Source: an uncultured bacterium
GTDB taxonomy: Bacteria > Babelota > Babeliae > Babelales > Babelaceae
Direction of reading: 5' to 3'
Length of the DNA stretch: 64,000 nucleotides
NCBI GenBank assembly: GCA_963848965.1
Contig: CAWKFG010000001.1
Coordinates: forward strand, 256,001-320,000
The number at the start of each line of letters is the position of its first letter. Within the stretch, counting starts at the first letter, position 1. Made by a program: the position numbers and the translations under genes. Below the pieces are notes generated by a model that ran no database searches, had not been told where the DNA came from, and worked only from the letters and a program-made list of their open reading frames with translations. Shown here one piece after another: positions 46,695-53,683 of this stretch.

Positions 46695-47125
46695 TTAGGG
46701 CATCAAGACGCAGGAAATCTGCTCATCAAACACCAGAAATATCACTTACTCCTTTAATTGATACAGCACTCGTACTTCTTGTAATCTTTATGATTGCTAC
46801 TCCTATGATGCAAAACTCTCTTAAAGTGAATCTTCCTAAAGGGTACATGAAAGAAGATCAACAAGAAACAGCACAAGAAAATCTTGTTGTTGCTATTAAT
46901 CAAGATTTAAAAGCAGATGAGCATATTATTGCTCTCAATGGTAAAAAAGTCTCTTTTGCAGAACTTGTTCCTGCAATAGAGCAAAAAATAGGGACTAAAA
47001 AAGACCAGAAAATTTATATTGAATGTGACGAAAAAGTACGTTATGGCTTCTTATTTGAAGTAGCAGACAAGATAAAATATCTGGCAGGGGTGGAACATGT
47101 TATTTTATCTGCACAGAAGGCCTAG
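46691..47125 (+). CDS. tolR: TolR/ExbD
   Basis: EISLTPLIDTALVLLVIFMIATPM. Confidence 0.9.
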   Translation: MIRASRRRKSAHQTPEISLTPLIDTALVLLVIFMIATPMMQNSLKVNLPKGYMKEDQQETAQENLVVAINQDLKADEHIIALNGKKVSFAELVPAIEQKIGTKKDQKIYIECDEKVRYGFLFEVADKIKYLAGVEHVILSAQKA

Positions 47126-48134
47126 AGAGCAGATCCTTTTATTTAAAATATTTTTATATACATGTAGTGCTCACTTGTTACTTTTACTTTCATGTTTCTT
47201 CGCAGAAAAATATTTGCGTACTACTTATACTGTGCTTTTTTCAGGCCGTCGTATAGGGTCAGGTGCTGCAGTAAGCTTTGGAAAAGGAACAAAAAAAGGA
47301 CAAGGCACAGGATCTCTTCATCATAGTGTACCAGGAGCTGCGAAGCAGTTAGATACTACTTGCCAAAATACTCTTCCAAAGACTGTTCCTCAACATGAAG
47401 CTCCTAAGAAAGCAGAACCAAAAACTATAGAACCGCAAGAAAAACTACCTGAAAAAGCGCTTCAAAAATCTGGTAAAAAGGTACAAGCTGCTAAAAAGGA
47501 AACAAAACCAGCTGTTCCTCTGTATAGCGAATTAAAAAGAAACTATTCGACGCTCAAAACTGCTCATAAAGCTCAGCCTAAAGAGTTTGAAAAGCAAGCT
47601 CCTCTAATTAAGCCTCAAGAACCAGTAAAAAAAGAGGAGCCAAAAAAAGAAGCTGTGCAAGAGAAAAAAGTGCAACCAGAGCCTAAAAAGGAAGTGGTTA
47701 CTCAAGAAACGAAGCCAGAACCTAAAAAAGTTCAGGAAAAACCTCAAGAAGCTCCTTTAGCAAAAACATCAGAAGCTCTATTGCAGGTAGAACAAACTCA
47801 AGTAAATACTTTACCCGGTGCAGAAACTAATACTCTCCAGAGTGAAGGGCAACCTAATGGAGAAACACTCACTATTGATTTTTCAGATACGGTCATAGCA
47901 GACAGATTTATGAGAGAAATTAGCCAAGCGATAGCACGGTATTTTAGGAAGCCTCTTGGATTTGATGATCATGAACATTTTACTATTTCTTTTGAGATAT
48001 GTGACCAAAAAGCGCGTAATATAAGTGCACGTGGCTCAGAACCGCTGATACTGTATGCAGCGCTTAAAGAGGCACTGCTCAAAGCTACTTTTTCAGGGAT
48101 ATATACTCCTACAAAAGTAGAACTCGTATATTAA
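47097..48134 (+). CDS. TolA/TonB-like energy transducer
   Basis: N-terminal TM with S.H (SAHLLLL), Lys/Glu/Pro-rich stalk, position between tolR and tolB. Confidence 0.7.
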   Translation: MLFYLHRRPREQILLFKIFLYTCSAHLLLLLSCFFAEKYLRTTYTVLFSGRRIGSGAAVSFGKGTKKGQGTGSLHHSVPGAAKQLDTTCQNTLPKTVPQHEAPKKAEPKTIEPQEKLPEKALQKSGKKVQAAKKETKPAVPLYSELKRNYSTLKTAHKAQPKEFEKQAPLIKPQEPVKKEEPKKEAVQEKKVQPEPKKEVVTQETKPEPKKVQEKPQEAPLAKTSEALLQVEQTQVNTLPGAETNTLQSEGQPNGETLTIDFSDTVIADRFMREISQAIARYFRKPLGFDDHEHFTISFEICDQKARNISARGSEPLILYAALKEALLKATFSGIYTPTKVELVY

Positions 48135-48151: not shown

Positions 48152-49429
48152 ATGCTTATTATTATACCATTCGTACTCTTTTCCTTTTCTCTTTTTTCAT
48201 CGTTACGCATTGAAATGGATGGAGAACATCAATCTCTGAAAGCACCAATGAAACTTCTTCTTGCAATTGCATCAGACGATGATGAGCTCACAGAACTTGC
48301 AAAGATTATACAAGATAACTTTCAACGGAGTGGCCAATTTGTAGTTACTGTAGATATCCAAGAACATCCAAAAACTAAATCTGAAGTAAAAAAAATCTTT
48401 TCTTCTGGTTATTCACTCGTTACTTTTCTTAATCAAGCCGATAACAACAAATCATTTGAATGGCGCTTGTACGATGCTGTAGAGGCGCATATGGTAAAGG
48501 GCAAAAAGGTGCCCAAAAGCTTTTCCCTTCGCTCTCAAGCTAATAGCCTCTCTGACGACTTGTGGTATACGCTGACACACCAACCAAGCTCATTCTCTTC
48601 AAAGATAGCATATACTAAGAAACTTACAGGTGCTCATCGTCATCAATCTTCTATTTGTTTCTCTAATGCTGATGGCTCTGATAGCCAAATATTTATAGCC
48701 GCCCCCGGCACGTACGTTGGCCTTTATTGGCACAAAGACGGAGGGGAGCCTCTACTTTTCTGCTCAGAATTTACTCGCTTTAACGTACGTCTTATCTCCT
48801 TTACTCCTACCGCTCAGAAAAAGATTGTTCTTGATCTTAATGGAACGTGTGTAGGTATATCATTATCTGACGATACGTCAAAAGCCCTCTATTGCCGTTC
48901 TGGTGACATATGGCTCTATGCCTACGACTCTGCCATAAAAAGGGGCTCTCATAAGTGTCTTATTAAGAATGATGGCAAGAACATGTCACCCATCTTGTTA
49001 CCAAATAATGACATTATATTCTGTTCTGATTCACATAAGCTGTCACCCAAATTTCGAGGGCCGCACATCTATCTCTATTCACCTTCAACAGGTACTACAA
49101 AACAGCTGACCAAAGATGGATTCTGCGTAGGACCTGCATACTGTCCAAGAACCCAAAAACTTGCCTACTCCAAGCGAGTCAACGGAACAATGCAAATATA
49201 CCTCTATGACATGAAAACTGATAAGCATATTCAACTTACTACTGATAAAGGTGATAAGCTCGATTGCTGCTGGTCGCCATGCGGAACGTACCTCGCCTTC
49301 TGCCATCAACAGAACCGCACAAGCCGCATAGCTACTATGCATGCTGTACTCAAAAAACGCTTCTATATTACGCCTGAAAACCAGTACTGTTCGTGCCCTG
49401 CATGGTCAGATACTTCTGCTAGTCAGTGA
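48152..49429 (+). CDS. tolB: TolB-like beta-propeller protein
   Basis: TolB N-domain-like start, PD40-like repeats (QLT, WSPCG, PAWS), operon context. Confidence 0.8.
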   Translation: MLIIIPFVLFSFSLFSSLRIEMDGEHQSLKAPMKLLLAIASDDDELTELAKIIQDNFQRSGQFVVTVDIQEHPKTKSEVKKIFSSGYSLVTFLNQADNNKSFEWRLYDAVEAHMVKGKKVPKSFSLRSQANSLSDDLWYTLTHQPSSFSSKIAYTKKLTGAHRHQSSICFSNADGSDSQIFIAAPGTYVGLYWHKDGGEPLLFCSEFTRFNVRLISFTPTAQKKIVLDLNGTCVGISLSDDTSKALYCRSGDIWLYAYDSAIKRGSHKCLIKNDGKNMSPILLPNNDIIFCSDSHKLSPKFRGPHIYLYSPSTGTTKQLTKDGFCVGPAYCPRTQKLAYSKRVNGTMQIYLYDMKTDKHIQLTTDKGDKLDCCWSPCGTYLAFCHQQNRTSRIATMHAVLKKRFYITPENQYCSCPAWSDTSASQ

Positions 49430-49438
49430 CGCTTTTTT

Positions 49439-49824
49439 AAGGGGCTCTGCCCCTTGTACCCCGCTAGGGCCTTGGCCCTAGAACCCATTTGCTTCTTTTT
49501 GTTCTTTTTCTGCGTTAAAAAACGCTGAGCGTTTTTTAACAATAGCAGTCGCTACGCGATTTAAGCAACCAGGGGAACTCCCTGGTTGCCCGTTGCTGAC
49601 TTACGTTCTACTTACTGGTATTTCATACCAAAGGTAACTCTGTAATCACACCGTCGGCAGCAGGGGTGCGTTCCACCCCTGATGGAGATTCCCGGAGGGA
49701 CTGCTATTGCAAAAAATCAGCATGATTTTTTGCTTTAAAAGAACAAGCGAGGAGCTTTAGCTCTGAAGCTATAAAGCGGGTTGCAAGGGTACACCCTTGC
49801 TGGGGTTACAGGGGCAAAGCCCCT
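49439..49824 (+). other. Quasi-symmetric multi-hairpin structured element (ncRNA, ssDNA structure or MITE-like)
   Basis: Five mirrored hairpin pairs joined by long-range complementary segments; see findings. Confidence 0.8.
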
Positions 49825-49895
49825 AGCTAAGTAGACAGTTAGCCTGCCGTAGTCATGATCGCAGGAGAAGGCAAAAACTCTTGTGTAAAGAACTA

Positions 49896-49924
49896 TCGAC
49901 AAAATAGTGCTTTGAGGGTATACT
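49896..49924 (+). promoter_or_regulatory. Sigma70-like promoter of ftsH
   Basis: TCGACA-17nt-TATACT. Confidence 0.55.
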
Positions 49925-50036
49925 ATTAGTATTAATAGGCTAAAAAATAAGCATATCTATTTTGTTTCTCGTAAGGCCGCATAGATAAAGCTGCGGAGAG
50001 TAAAAAATACAAGGTTTTTCAACAAGTGAGTGTCGT

Positions 50037-51857
50037 ATGAAAAAAATAAACATTAAAAATTTTAAAGGGGGCCCTGGCAATCTGTTTATTATAGCAGTGT
50101 TCCTCTTAGGTACCCTCTTTGCTGTATTTAAGCTGGCGGAGCTTAATAGGGCAACGGAGAGTATTAAGTATTCTACGTTTCTAAAGAGATTAGAGGCCAA
50201 TAAGATTCAGGCTGTTGAAGCTAATGGTTCAGAGATTAGAGGGCTCTATCGTGATGGCGGTCGTTTTGAGACGGTAATTCCAGATAATCCTAAGATCTGG
50301 GATATGTTACGAGAGCATAATGTAGAGGTTGCGATTATTTCGCCATCGTCTACTGATTTTGGACTCTGGCATCTTTTGTATCTCTTGCCGTTTATTATGA
50401 CATTGCTTTTTATTTGGTACTTTTTCAGACAATCAAGAAGCTCGGGTGGCAATGGTGGTAATATCTTTAGTATGAGTAAAAGTAAAGCTAAGATGTTTAT
50501 GCCTGCCCAGATTAAAGTAACTTTTGATTCGGTTGCTGGTGCTGCTGAAGCAAAAGAAGAGCTCAAAGATGTTGTAGACTTTTTAAGAAGTCCTGAAAAG
50601 TATAAAAGGTTGGGTGCCAAGCTAACGAGAGGTGTCCTCTTGGTAGGTGAACCGGGTAATGGTAAGACCTTACTTGCAAAGGCAGTTGCTGGAGAAGCAA
50701 ATTGTCCTTTCTTTAGTGTAAGTGGTTCTGACTTTATTGAAGTATTTGTGGGTGTTGGTGCTGCTCGTGTAAGAGACTTGTTTATGCAAGCACGACGTCA
50801 TGCTCCGAGTATTGTGTTTATCGATGAGATAGATGCTGTCGGTCGTCAGCGTGGCAGTGGCCTTGGTGGCGGTCATGACGAGCGTGAACAGACACTCAAC
50901 CAGCTACTGACAGAGATGGACGGTTTTGATACAGGGCAGTCGTCTGTTATTGTATTAGCTGCGACTAATAGGCCAGATGTGCTTGATAAAGCTCTTTTGC
51001 GTCCAGGTCGTTTTGACAGAAGTGTCTATGTTCCTTTTCCAGATCTTATAAGTAGAGAAGAGATTCTTCGTGTCCATGCACAAGGCGTTAAAATGGATAA
51101 GGGTATAGATCTTCATAGAGTAGCACGAGGAACTCCAGGATTTACTGGAGCAGATCTAGCGAATCTTATTAACGAAGCTGCTATTAATGCTTCTAAAAAT
51201 AATCAAGCTATGGTCCTATTACCTGATTTTGAAGAAGCACGAGATAAGATATTACTTGGTAAAGAAAGAAAGACGGTAGTACTCTCTGACCATGAACGAA
51301 AAATAACTGCATTCCATGAAGCAGGACATACGCTTATTAGAGTTCTGTTACCAAATGAGACAGATCCTCTTCATAAGGTTACTATTGTGCCTCGTGGAAG
51401 AGCGCTGGGCGTTTCTTTCTCATTGCCAGAACGAGAACGTCATAGTATCTCCAAGGAAGAAAAACTTGCAGATATTACGGTAGCACTTGGCGGCCGTGCT
51501 GCTGAAGAGCTTATGTTTAATCGTCTTGAAACAGGAGCGTATGACGACTTTAAGAAGGCTACCGAAATTGCTCGTAATATGGTATGCTATTATGGTATGT
51601 CCAGCTCATTAGGACCTGTCGTTTATCAGCGTGAAGATGGTGAACCGAACTACTCTCCAGAGACAGCACGCCAAATTGACCAAGAAATACGATCAATAAT
51701 GGATCTTTGCTACCAACGAGCTATCAAATTATTGGGTGAAAATAAAGATAAGCTTTCTAAGCTTGCAGAAGCTCTTTTAGAAAAAGAGACGCTCTTTGCA
51801 GCAGAAGTATACGACCTTCTTGGTCTTGAACCTCGTGAAGGGCATTTATTCCATTAA
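50037..51857 (+). CDS. ftsH: ATP-dependent zinc metalloprotease FtsH
   Basis: Two [31 protein letters not shown]. Confidence 0.98.
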
Positions 51858-52510: not shown

Positions 52511-53584
52511 TTAAGAAGCACGTGCTCTAAAGAAAGCGTACTTCTGGTCTAGCTTTTTAGCGAGCCATGGTACTGTAAATCCAAGCACGAGTCCGCTCAG
52601 CCATGCCCCAGATCGTTTTTTAATATCAGCTGATCTTGCCGGATTAGAGTGGTTAAGAGATCGTTGGAGTACTATAAGACTTGCTCCAAGGCCTCCTAAG
52701 CTGCCCCATCGTTGTGATTTTGTAAGCTGCGGTGATGTCCATAAGTGCTGTGCAACCATACCATACACAAATGCTGCGAGTCCTTCAGAGATAAGCTCAG
52801 GAGTAATGAATGGTGCTTGAGGAGCAGGACGAGTTGCATGTACTGTATGTGGATTGCCTACAGGGACGGCTTCTGGTTTTTCGTCTGCTGTATGTTTATA
52901 GCGTCTTACGTTAGGCATATCTTCTATATGACGTTTACAATGAGGACATGCCCGATCTGTTGAACTTTCTACAAGCTCGGTAAAACATACTGTATGATAG
53001 AGAGCTGCACAGTGAGCAGAACATTGTGTTACAAGGTCCTCTGCTTGAAATCGACCTTGGCAGAAATTACACTGTGTTTGGTCTACAGCGGGGTTATTCG
53101 ATGCTTGTGCTGCAGGTTTTGCTTGAGATGCTACTGGAATTTTTGTAGCTGTAGGAGCTGGCGTCTTTGGTGTAGGTGCTTTTGGTGCTGGAGCCTGCGG
53201 TGCTTGTGCAGGAGCAGCTGCTTTCTGAAGTTCGGTAATTGCTTTACGCATAAAAGCTTTTGGCATTTGAAACATTTTTCCGCTACAACTAGGACAAGGA
53301 AATGAGTTATCCATACTATATTTATAATTTATTGATTGTTGAGCAGCTTTATTCTTTTCAAAACAAGCGGGATGGTAACCCACTGTTTTGCAATTGAAAG
53401 GACACCGTGTTATAAGATCCGCTTCTTCAAACTCTACATAACAAATACCACATGCTACGGGATCAACTTCTTTAAAATCTTCAAGTTTAAGCTCTTTTGG
53501 TTGTTGATTCATACAAGAGCTCATTGATGTAGTAAGCATAATGCTTGTAAAGATAAGTAAATACTTTGTTCTAAATAGTTTCAT
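52511..53584 (-). CDS. Secreted/membrane protein with two C4HC3 RING-variant zinc fingers
   Basis: Two C-x2-C-x12-C-x3-C-x4/5-H-x2-C-xn-C-x2-C motifs, Pro/Ala linker, hydrophobic C-terminus; ATG 53584 preceded by GGAG. Confidence 0.8.
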   Translation of the reverse strand: MKLFRTKYLLIFTSIMLTTSMSSCMNQQPKELKLEDFKEVDPVACGICYVEFEEADLITRCPFNCKTVGYHPACFEKNKAAQQSINYKYSMDNSFPCPSCSGKMFQMPKAFMRKAITELQKAAAPAQAPQAPAPKAPTPKTPAPTATKIPVASQAKPAAQASNNPAVDQTQCNFCQGRFQAEDLVTQCSAHCAALYHTVCFTELVESSTDRACPHCKRHIEDMPNVRRYKHTADEKPEAVPVGNPHTVHATRPAPQAPFITPELISEGLAAFVYGMVAQHLWTSPQLTKSQRWGSLGGLGASLIVLQRSLNHSNPARSADIKKRSGAWLSGLVLGFTVPWLAKKLDQKYAFFRARAS

Positions 53585-53683
53585 AAAGATCTCCATTAAA
53601 ATGCTGCAAAAAAATTATTTATATCTTAAAATTGATTACTTTAGTTTTTAAACTATACCATATTCTGTAAAAACCTTAAATGG

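Follow-up and report, generated by a model that had tools for sequence, protein, structure and literature searches.

A two-hairpin module shared across phyla in genomes without RAYT, with stems and runs covarying as base triples would, and its inflation to a 385-nt nested palindrome in a Dependentiae genome

The window analysed here is a stretch of 64,000 nt (positions 256,001 to 320,000 of contig CAWKFG010000001.1, assembly GCA_963848965.1) from the genome of an uncultured, protist-associated bacterium of the family Babelaceae in the phylum Dependentiae (1.73 Mb in five contigs with G+C contents of 34–38%, 88.7% complete). Positions 49439..49824 of the window are occupied by a non-coding, hairpin-packed imperfect inverted repeat of 385–386 nt, which is probably one copy of a dispersed repeat family resembling doublets of repetitive extragenic palindromes (REPINs and REPs, respectively), bacterial interspersed mosaic elements (BIMEs), and miniature inverted-repeat transposable elements (MITEs), with ends of the BoxC/PIT triplex type, as opposed to a unique RNA gene or an origin. 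The element is multi-copy, and the two-hairpin module at its ends recurs in other genera and in another phylum, in elements whose interiors differ. Each run of C residues following a hairpin of the module corresponds to the purine run of that hairpin, both in length and, in the cases with an interrupting A, in parallel register. The module crosses phyla, occurs in genomes devoid of the REP-associated tyrosine transposase (RAYT), has stems and runs that covary as base triples would, and is inflated in the host genome to a nested palindrome of 385 nt.

BLAST, proposed in the first-pass annotation of the window as a check of copy number, finds the element multi-copy in the host genome (G000), with seven full-length copies, that in the window included, and two to three truncated ones, all of them intergenic. 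Five of the full-length copies are 76–87% identical to the window copy and a further one is symmetric:

C4:477236-477622, C1:353754-354139, C4:671101-671486, C1:159251-159632, and C4:43478-43858: full-length copies
C4:268413-268816: symmetric 404-nt copy, its left arm being the reverse complement of a right-type arm
C4:472154-472355 and C4:551547-551760: truncated copies, right-arm sequence

In an alignment of the six standard copies (A1, 398 element columns) similarity starts and stops sharply at the terminal hairpins. Pairwise identity is 81–88% among five of the copies and 65–69% to the one at C4:43478-43858, in which the core (element nt 91-277) is inverted between the short inverted CAATAGCAGTC arms. 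This inversion, together with the swapped arm of the symmetric copy, indicates that the inverted arms recombine. Invariant columns make up 214 of the 398, and the longest uninterrupted run of them, 23 columns (a length reached by 2 of 10,000 column shuffles), lies around the A6/T6 hairpin at window positions 49514-49540. In four of the six standard copies a co-directional gene has its stop codon 4–41 nt before the left end; of the remaining two, one is in the opposite orientation and the other lies between divergent genes, while the symmetric copy begins 6 nt past a stop codon. The copies look like old, probably immobile insertions, placed mostly just past stop codons. The other repeats checked in a self-BLAST of the whole genome are paralogous coding repeats of 66–78% identity and not insertion sequences (IS) or similar non-coding families; a AGCTAGTTAAGG-like motif found near several copies was rejected as a distinct dispersed motif.

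The conserved unit of the family is the end module and not the whole element. The module, about 50 nt long, begins with hairpin 1 (AGGGGC-NNN-GCCCCT), which a C-run follows, and continues with hairpin 2, likewise followed by a C-run; the two modules of an element are inverted relative to each other and separated in the host genome by about 285 nt of further hairpins, an interior that is a lineage-specific filling. BLAST with the whole element gave no match in 40 relatives, and among 261 genomes of the phylum its sole match outside low-complexity T-rich sequence was to the terminal region, over 52 nt, and came from G054, a genome in the GTDB family of the host, where the matched sequence is one end of a palindromic element of about 340 nt with an unrelated interior, pieces of which recur elsewhere in G054. 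A pattern search for hairpin 2 recovered two loci in the genome collection and four in the metagenome collection. One of these, L043, is a contig of 63% G+C with a 230-nt palindromic element carrying the module at both ends and lying between an RND adaptor gene and the gene of its pump, the latter protein being at most 27% identical to anything in the 261 Dependentiae genomes; on another, L044 (51% G+C), the left module is almost the same as that of the copy at C1:353754, and a second element lies 2 kb off.

Seventeen modules were assembled into alignment A2, from which the covariance model R1 was built. In the host genome all 16 matches of R1 fall within the nine copies, and the model matches both ends of the window element in opposite orientations. 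Within the same GTDB family, matches were found in 8 of 41 genomes (41 in G007, 5 in G054, and 4 in G022), and in the phylum sample 7 of 151 genomes, from three GTDB families, have matches at E<=1e-4. In G007, a genome of 0.9 Mb, many modules form inverted pairs bounding elements of 215–340 nt with a long central hairpin; in 11 of 15 such elements a long open frame terminates no more than 25 nt away on one side, a count to be read with the flanks covering only about 200 nt and other-strand frames often being open. In G227 eight modules in one orientation form a tandem array with a unit of about 76 nt in 1.3 kb of non-coding DNA, the unit itself being nested in a higher-order repeat of about 560 nt (L146 1408-2810; G227:C1 ~1260100-1261600, minus strand). 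The metagenome-assembled genome G261 of a Synergistaceae bacterium (2.3 Mb, holding locus L039) has at least 97 matches, a lower bound because 150 of 1373 candidates were scored, and its modules are arranged in inverted doublets of 120–157 nt with a short A/T-rich linker. The modules of G261 and the distant relationship of the L043 pump to Dependentiae proteins place the family outside the phylum at least twice. The distribution of the module is patchy and the copy numbers are very unequal. In plasmid DNA no similarity to either the window element or the L043 element was found, phages gave only two matches of 32–33 nt (E 3e-3 and 9e-3), and viral contigs contained no pattern match. A limited literature collection, searched for palindromic, inverted, or transposable repeats of Dependentiae and Babela, contained no description of the element family, and a search of it for REP-type repeats of Synergistota gave nothing specific to the family.

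All the helices listed in the first-pass annotation are present where it placed them, and the structure of the element is far beyond chance, with no preferred strand. Folding with RNA parameters (49430-49835, 406 nt, 100 shuffles per strand) gave -188.7 kcal/mol for the plus strand (z -11.6) and -188.4 kcal/mol for the minus strand (z -10.8), values which no shuffle equalled, and with DNA parameters (49439-49824) the z-scores were -12.6 and -12.0, respectively. The suggestion that G-T pairs favour folding of the plus strand does not hold, as the strands fold equally in the window copy and the difference between plus- and minus-strand energies over the seven full-length copies ranges from -1.1 to +8.7 kcal/mol with mixed sign. 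The symmetry described earlier as mirror symmetry is, at the 385-nt scale, that of an inverted repeat, i.e., palindromic. A comparison of both strands of 48900-50400 with Rfam gave no family at E<=1, and ARAGORN found neither a tRNA nor a tmRNA.

What is conserved is the structure of the local hairpins, while the long spine is not maintained. The ten local hairpins account for 79 pairs in A1; of the 468 cells of these, 95.3% are paired, and 13 of the pairs change on both sides, a number reached by none of 500 shuffles; for four of the five measures of this test no shuffle in 500 reached the observed value. When the partner strand is slid by one to three columns, pairing falls to 39–56%. The A2 modules behave likewise, with two-sided changes in 10 of 15 hairpin pairs and pairing in 96.4% of 253 cells (0 of 500 shuffles); many of the changes are differences between left-type and right-type hairpin 2 and hence represent few events. 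The proposal that the hairpins stay paired in spite of sequence divergence is borne out, and the pairing is kept by selection or by a symmetrising mutation process. The spine, which the first-pass annotation read as stacked four-way junctions, is a minimum-free-energy prediction with no covariation behind it: its 33 pairs in five helices are 94.9% paired, no better than shuffles (178 of 500), only two pairs change on both sides (361 of 500 shuffles), and the informative pair in the ACCCC/GGGGT helix is CG in two copies, UG in two, and unpaired in two. The long palindrome is paired because both of its arms descend from one sequence.

The strands of two of these spine helices, ACCCC and AACCC, come after hairpins 1 and 2, and it is the adjacent hairpin that the runs track. 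The relation of the stem purines next to the loop-closing base to the run that follows is as below:

GGGG followed by CCCC: many modules
GGG followed by CCC: many modules
GGGGG followed by CCCCC, and GGGGGG by CCCCCC: L043
GGGA followed by CCCT: four modules of the host genome, in either arm
GGA followed by CCT: L044
GAGG followed by CTCC: L044:982
GGGGA followed by CCCCT: L084, genus g10
GGAG followed by CCTG: weak module L044:816, read by eye

Of the 68 cells tested in A2, 97.1% agree with the parallel register (0 of 500 shuffles), the informative column pair being GC in 12 modules and AU in 5, while the antiparallel register fits 89.7% (171 of 500 shuffles) and a shifted one 77.9%; pairing of the C-run in antiparallel same register or in shifted register was rejected for its poorer fit. 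Where the G-run of a parsed module contains an A or has one after it, hairpin 1 is followed by a parallel match in seven cases, by neither register in three, and by an antiparallel match in none (n=10), the respective numbers for hairpin 2 being three, eight, and none (n=11); ten of the eleven cases of neither register are GAGGG stems, in which the A falls outside the three triads. The purine run of the stem and the run after it are equally long in 105 of 128 modules at hairpin 1 and, at hairpin 2, in 83 of 108, values that none of 5000 within-genome shuffles reached. In G261 hairpin 1 has G3/C3 in 8 modules, G4/C4 in 30, and an off-diagonal combination in 7, and its doublets have one arm with G4/C4 and the other with G3/C3, showing that each run corresponds to the stem before it and not to the other arm. 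Two further partners for the C-run, the opposite arm and the 5' stem of hairpin 2, were set aside by reasoning, since pairing with them fits some variants and neither GAGG followed by CTCC nor the G4/G3 asymmetry of the arms; a G-quadruplex or i-motif was likewise discarded (by reasoning only), as internal A or T would break the runs and no mirror rule is predicted.

A purine strand, a loop, a Watson–Crick pyrimidine strand, a linker, and a mirror pyrimidine strand follow one another as in an intrastrand pyrimidine-motif triplex (C+*G-C, T*A-T), and the complementary strand is laid out like the purine motif (G*G-C, A*A-T). It is possible, if short of probable, that each hairpin with its run forms 3–6 base triples in the manner of the BoxC/PIT intrastrand-triplex repeats, of the C+*G-C and T*A-T kind on one strand and of the G*G-C and A*A-T kind on the other. 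The family may well have spread as mobile DNA, its functional form being a folded single strand, either of DNA during replication or transposition or of RNA in 3' untranslated regions (UTRs); the copying enzyme would not be encoded beside the element.

A number of observations weigh against this reading, some concerning the runs and others mobility. Hairpin 2 of L148, with GGGA followed by CCCA, contradicts the run rule, further exceptions are four modules of G261 with GGGG followed by CCCT and one with GGGG followed by CTCC, and the runs are unequal to their stems in 23 of 128 modules for hairpin 1 and in 25 of 108 for hairpin 2. These numbers come from a parser accepting only perfect hairpin 1 stems of at least 4 bp, which dropped 3 of the 131 unique modules for hairpin 1 and 23 for hairpin 2. 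The rule does not explain the GCG-type hairpin 2 of G007 with its ACCTG tail (at loci L104, L105, L114, L121, L131, and L133 of that genome the core of hairpin 2 is GCGC, CAAGCGCC..., and the tail is ACCTG or ATCTG instead of ACCC). Probably no more than three to four independent events lie behind the informative A/T variants. Watson–Crick covariation in a palindrome can also arise through template-switch "self-correction" without selection. Finally, 3–6 triads fall short of the block length of 6–15 nt used to define intrastrand triplex motifs in the available text of PMC4666352, so that the stability of the triplex is doubtful without a protein, Mg2+, or low pH.

As to mobility, no target-site duplication was found in the seven copies at lengths of 2–9 nt with boundary offsets of +/-8, the best score being four of seven copies for a dinucleotide inside the conserved ends, and the 74 outward flanks have no conserved motif, only k-mers of A/T runs being enriched. 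The Y1_Tnp domain (PF01797) has no match in G000, G007, G022, G009, or G261, although in the 88.7% complete G000 one could be missing; G054 has three Y1 genes, none of them adjoined by a module (best E 0.34). R1 and BLAST detected no parent IS with the same ends in G000, and in the other genomes there was no systematic search for module pairs enclosing genes. We infer mobility from dispersal and patchy distribution only. Of sequencing runs, a single DNA run contained part of the locus, yielding three contigs of 151–157 nt, and none of RNA was listed for it. The transposase genes of G000 comprise five of the DDE_Tnp_1 type (four identical), one DDE_3, four of the IS110 type (three identical), and eight TnpB-like (PF07282), none of which has the module ends by R1 or BLAST. 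The identical IS110-type and DDE_Tnp_1 copies suggest recently active insertion sequences in this 1.7-Mb genome. The first 20 kb of one contig (G000:C4:1-20000), in which the listed hairpins lie in G+C-rich sequence unlike the rest of the genome and which has a divergent IS110-type gene (C4:13658-14083), may be foreign or mis-binned.

The window copy has a G+C content of 49%, against 37% for the genome. A repeat finder reports three long inverted pairs in it, I3 (49440-49462/49802-49824, 23 nt, 83% complementary), I2 (49499-49528/49717-49746), and I1 (49533-49559/49690-49716), and the perfect local hairpins I20 (49464-49481), I7 (49514-49540), I12 (49565-49589), I11 (49709-49733), and I24 (49783-49800). 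Its parts and neighbours, with hairpins numbered from either end (hp, L and R for the left and right arm), are the following:

48152..49429, plus strand: upstream gene for a 425-aa beta-propeller protein, the last of a MotA_ExbB/ExbD (Tol-like) cluster
49439..49824, no strand: full element copy; similarity to the other copies begins and stops here in A1
49439..49455, plus strand: left terminal hairpin hp1-L, AAGGGGC-TCT-GCCCCTT
49459..49462, plus strand: CCCC run after hp1-L, within the former "spine" strand ACCCC; candidate Hoogsteen third strand on the register and run-length tests
49464..49481, plus strand: hp2-L, CTAGGGCC-TT-GGCCCTAG; inverted pair I20, compensatory variants in the copies C4:671k and C4:43k
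49482..49486, plus strand: AACCC tail after hp2-L, the second former "spine" strand; the C-run varies in step with the G-run of hp2
49510..49550, plus strand: best-conserved block of the family, including hp3-L (49514-49540, 12-bp A6/T6 stem)
49565..49589, plus strand: hp4-L, GCAACCAGGG...CCCTGGTTGC; inverted pair I12, hairpin covariation test
49616..49630, plus strand: apex hairpin TGGTAT-TTC-ATACCA, at the centre of the palindrome; varies most among the copies
49661..49681, plus strand: hp4-R, CAGGGGTG-CGTTC-CACCCCTG; loop kept, stem covarying
49709..49733, plus strand: hp3-R, GCAAAAAATCA-GCA-TGATTTTTTGC; inverted pair I11, hairpin covariation test
49751..49764, plus strand: small hairpin GGAGC-TTTA-GCTCT
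49778..49800, plus strand: GGGTT run and hp2-R (GCAAGGGT-AC-ACCCTTGC), i.e., the right-arm module read on the other strand; inverted pair I24
49802..49824, plus strand: GGGG run and right terminal hairpin hp1-R, AGGGGC-AAA-GCCCCT; R1 match at contig positions 305776-305826, minus strand
49896..49924, plus strand: promoter-like site TCGACA-17-TATACT between the element and ftsH, by consensus match only
50037..51857, plus strand: downstream gene ftsH (Peptidase_M41, AAA, and FtsH_ext)

The stop codon of the beta-propeller gene lies 10 nt ahead of the element and ftsH starts 213 nt downstream of it. In hp1-L a pair changes on both sides between G/C and A/T in two of six copies, and the outer pair is A-T, G-T, C-G, or T-A. 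The block 49510..49550 is invariant in all six aligned copies save for two loop positions. In hp4-R five of eight pairs change on both sides among the six copies, partial copies add more paired variants, and at least five paired forms of the stem occur with the CGTTC loop retained. The earlier statement that the element has no open reading frame (ORF) is right as regards real genes, but two mechanical ORFs, of 46 and 55 aa, overlap its ends. Nearly every module opens with a stop codon overlapping hairpin 1 (TAA-GGG, TGA-GGG, or TAG-GG), which is seen at both ends of the element (window positions 49438-49441 and 49823-49826); an insertion would thereby close one reading frame entering from either side, or the codon could be there by chance owing to the stem consensus. 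Further upstream, an ORF for 345 aa at 47097-48134 (plus strand), between the ExbD-like and beta-propeller genes, has no Pfam match and could be TolA-like by its position. On the minus strand at 52511-53596 a 361-aa protein matches RING-finger domains (zf-RING_2, Prok-RING_1), which are eukaryote-like and typical for protist-associated bacteria.

The location of the copies raises the question of a role in RNA, in which the hairpin cluster of a 3' UTR, perhaps with triple helices at the 3' end, would stop transcription or block 3'->5' exonucleases like the REPs and BIMEs of E. coli, the copies representing recruitment. Such a role is in keeping with the four standard copies just past co-directional stop codons and the symmetric copy 6 nt past one, with the promoter-like site of the next gene lying downstream of the element, with the covariation of the hairpins, and with the capacity of pyrimidine-type triplexes to form in RNA, given in the available text of PMC4666352. 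It is nevertheless unlikely, as both strands fold equally well and, of two copies, one is oppositely oriented and the other is flanked by divergent genes. Moreover, no terminator-like hairpin with a T-tail occurs in the element region (0 versus 1.2 expected), while ordinary terminators composed of a GC hairpin and a T-run occur at other places in this genome, modules form same-orientation tandem arrays in a 1.3-kb non-coding stretch of G227, and Rfam gives no match. A novel large single-copy non-coding RNA, one of the candidates named in the first-pass annotation, is at odds with the several copies, the lack of strand bias, and the same Rfam result.

The MITE-like element was the closest of the candidates named there: the family is multi-copy and dispersed and has structured terminal inverted repeats, although there is neither a target-site duplication nor a parent IS. 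A MITE in the classical sense, an internally deleted derivative of a DDE-type IS (e.g., of the IS630 or IS5 type) moved as double-stranded DNA and with its duplications decayed, is improbable. It would account for elements that are small, non-coding, multi-copy, and bordered by terminal inverted repeats, the genome does have DDE_Tnp_1 and DDE_3 genes, and many elements of G007 are bounded by TA...TA. This TA, however, belongs to a covarying hairpin stem, and at a divergence of 12–35% short duplications should mostly survive, while none of 2–9 nt was found. No IS of G000 carries the ends, all 16 R1 matches lying in repeat copies, and recognition of double-stranded DNA leaves the covariation of stems and of mirror-register runs unexplained.

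Quasi-palindromes are corrected by intrastrand template switching in the course of replication, which is an established process, and the element could in principle be a functionless palindromic relic shaped by mutation only. The absence of covariation in the spine and the old, diverged state of the copies agree with this. There is little probability in it all the same, since template switching gives an antiparallel complement and not a parallel match of stem and run or runs of equal length, and the CGTTC loop and the 23-column block are conserved well beyond the stems. To our knowledge no templated mutation process yields a mirror copy. A single-strand replication or priming site (similar to single-strand origins) or an origin, which the first-pass annotation also considered, would suit the many 3-nt loops and the strong folding of single-stranded DNA, but is extremely improbable for a sequence with nine copies dispersed over the chromosome and a module that other genomes carry tens to hundreds of times, with no plasmid match, with two phage matches of 32–33 nt only (E 3e-3 and 9e-3), and with none in viral contigs.

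The reading as a dispersed repeat family with triplex-type ends brings the element close to several known systems, and it is not a member of the REP/RAYT, TM_ECO, or classical MITE classes, from which it differs in the absence of RAYT, in consensus and block length, and in the absence of a duplication and a parent IS, respectively. Like REPs, BIMEs, and REPINs, which go with RAYT (TnpA_REP) transposases in the available texts of Bertels & Rainey (2011, PMC3116915 and PMC3337134) and Ton-Hoang (2012, PMC3333891), the modules are short G+C-rich extragenic hairpins with covarying stems, present in tens to hundreds of copies as single units, as inverted doublets with a spacer, or in mosaics with other motifs, often near the 3' ends of genes and without target-site duplication. 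The doublet arrangement of REPINs is found in G007 and G261, and in G000 with a spacer of about 285 nt. Unlike in REP/RAYT systems, no Y1/RAYT gene was found in G000, G007, G022, G009, and G261, the unit consists of two hairpins, each with a matching C-run, instead of one hairpin, and the doublet of G000 is inflated to 385 nt by its hairpin-rich interior. REPs carry a conserved 5' tetranucleotide of the GTAG type, which is not seen in the module consensus.

The BoxC/PIT/TM_ECO repeats of E. coli are described in the available text of Holder et al. (2015, PMC4666352) as strictly intergenic repeats of 37 nt, with 23 copies in MG1655 including five inverted pairs, composed of 9-nt blocks (CCCTCNCCC...GGGNGAGGG...GGGNGAGGG) and forming a triplex in vitro, with no function known as far as that text goes. 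On that description the modules resemble them in being dispersed, intergenic, and G/C-rich, in having three consecutive blocks of which the third mirrors the second, in the possibility that either strand could form a triplex (purine motif on one and pyrimidine motif on the other), and in the occurrence of some inverted pairs, the lack of a known association with mobile elements, and a number varying between relatives. They differ from TM_ECO by blocks of 3–6 nt, by unrelated sequence, and by two units in tandem per module; the evidence for the module is a comparative one, three-way covariation, while that for TM_ECO, in the text available, is biophysical.

With bacterial MITEs, as far as they are covered by the accessible part of a review (PMC3184786), the elements share their small size, non-coding nature, multi-copy and intergenic occurrence, terminal inverted repeats, and ability to fold into a long hairpin. 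From classical MITEs they are distinguished by the lack of a target-site duplication and a parent IS, and by ends that are hairpins with covarying stems. The ends of IS608 have base triplets beside the foot of a hairpin in single-stranded DNA (available text of He et al. 2011, PMC3201880), and on this partial account the subterminal hairpins, folded single-stranded DNA, base triplets, and insertion without duplication are common features. The ends of the present element are, however, inverted copies of one module, which the IS608 ends are not of each other, and there is no Y1 TnpA, which the IS608 ends need and which, with asymmetric left and right ends bearing subterminal hairpins, marks IS200/IS605-derived (PATE-like) elements; the ends of the TnpB-like genes in G000 (eight matches) do not resemble the module.

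Hairpin repeats of the REP, BIME, BoxC, and MITE kinds are common in bacteria, and the spread and role of most of them are unclear. The class to which the element is akin is itself ordinary, the points of note being the three-way covariation and the missing transposase. The family occurs in genomes without the RAYT transposase that is thought to drive REP-type repeats, which points to another copying mechanism. On a bolder view, which is rather doubtful at present, the module would be a natural miniature triple-helix device, with the stem purine, its Watson–Crick partner, and a Hoogsteen partner in parallel register tied together by three-way covariation, its folded single strand serving as the substrate of RAYT-independent copying across Dependentiae, Synergistota, and a high-G+C lineage, or else as a triple-helix stabiliser of RNA 3' ends. 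Annotators can take the family as a marker of gene boundaries in Dependentiae and in one Synergistaceae genome, and its members are not to be labelled as RNA genes. It provides a rare comparative handle, because its ends vary enough to reveal which contacts are preserved, namely the local hairpins and the mirror-register partner, not the long palindrome. If this partner forms base triples, the family would be evolutionary, and not test-tube, evidence that intrastrand triplexes matter in cells.

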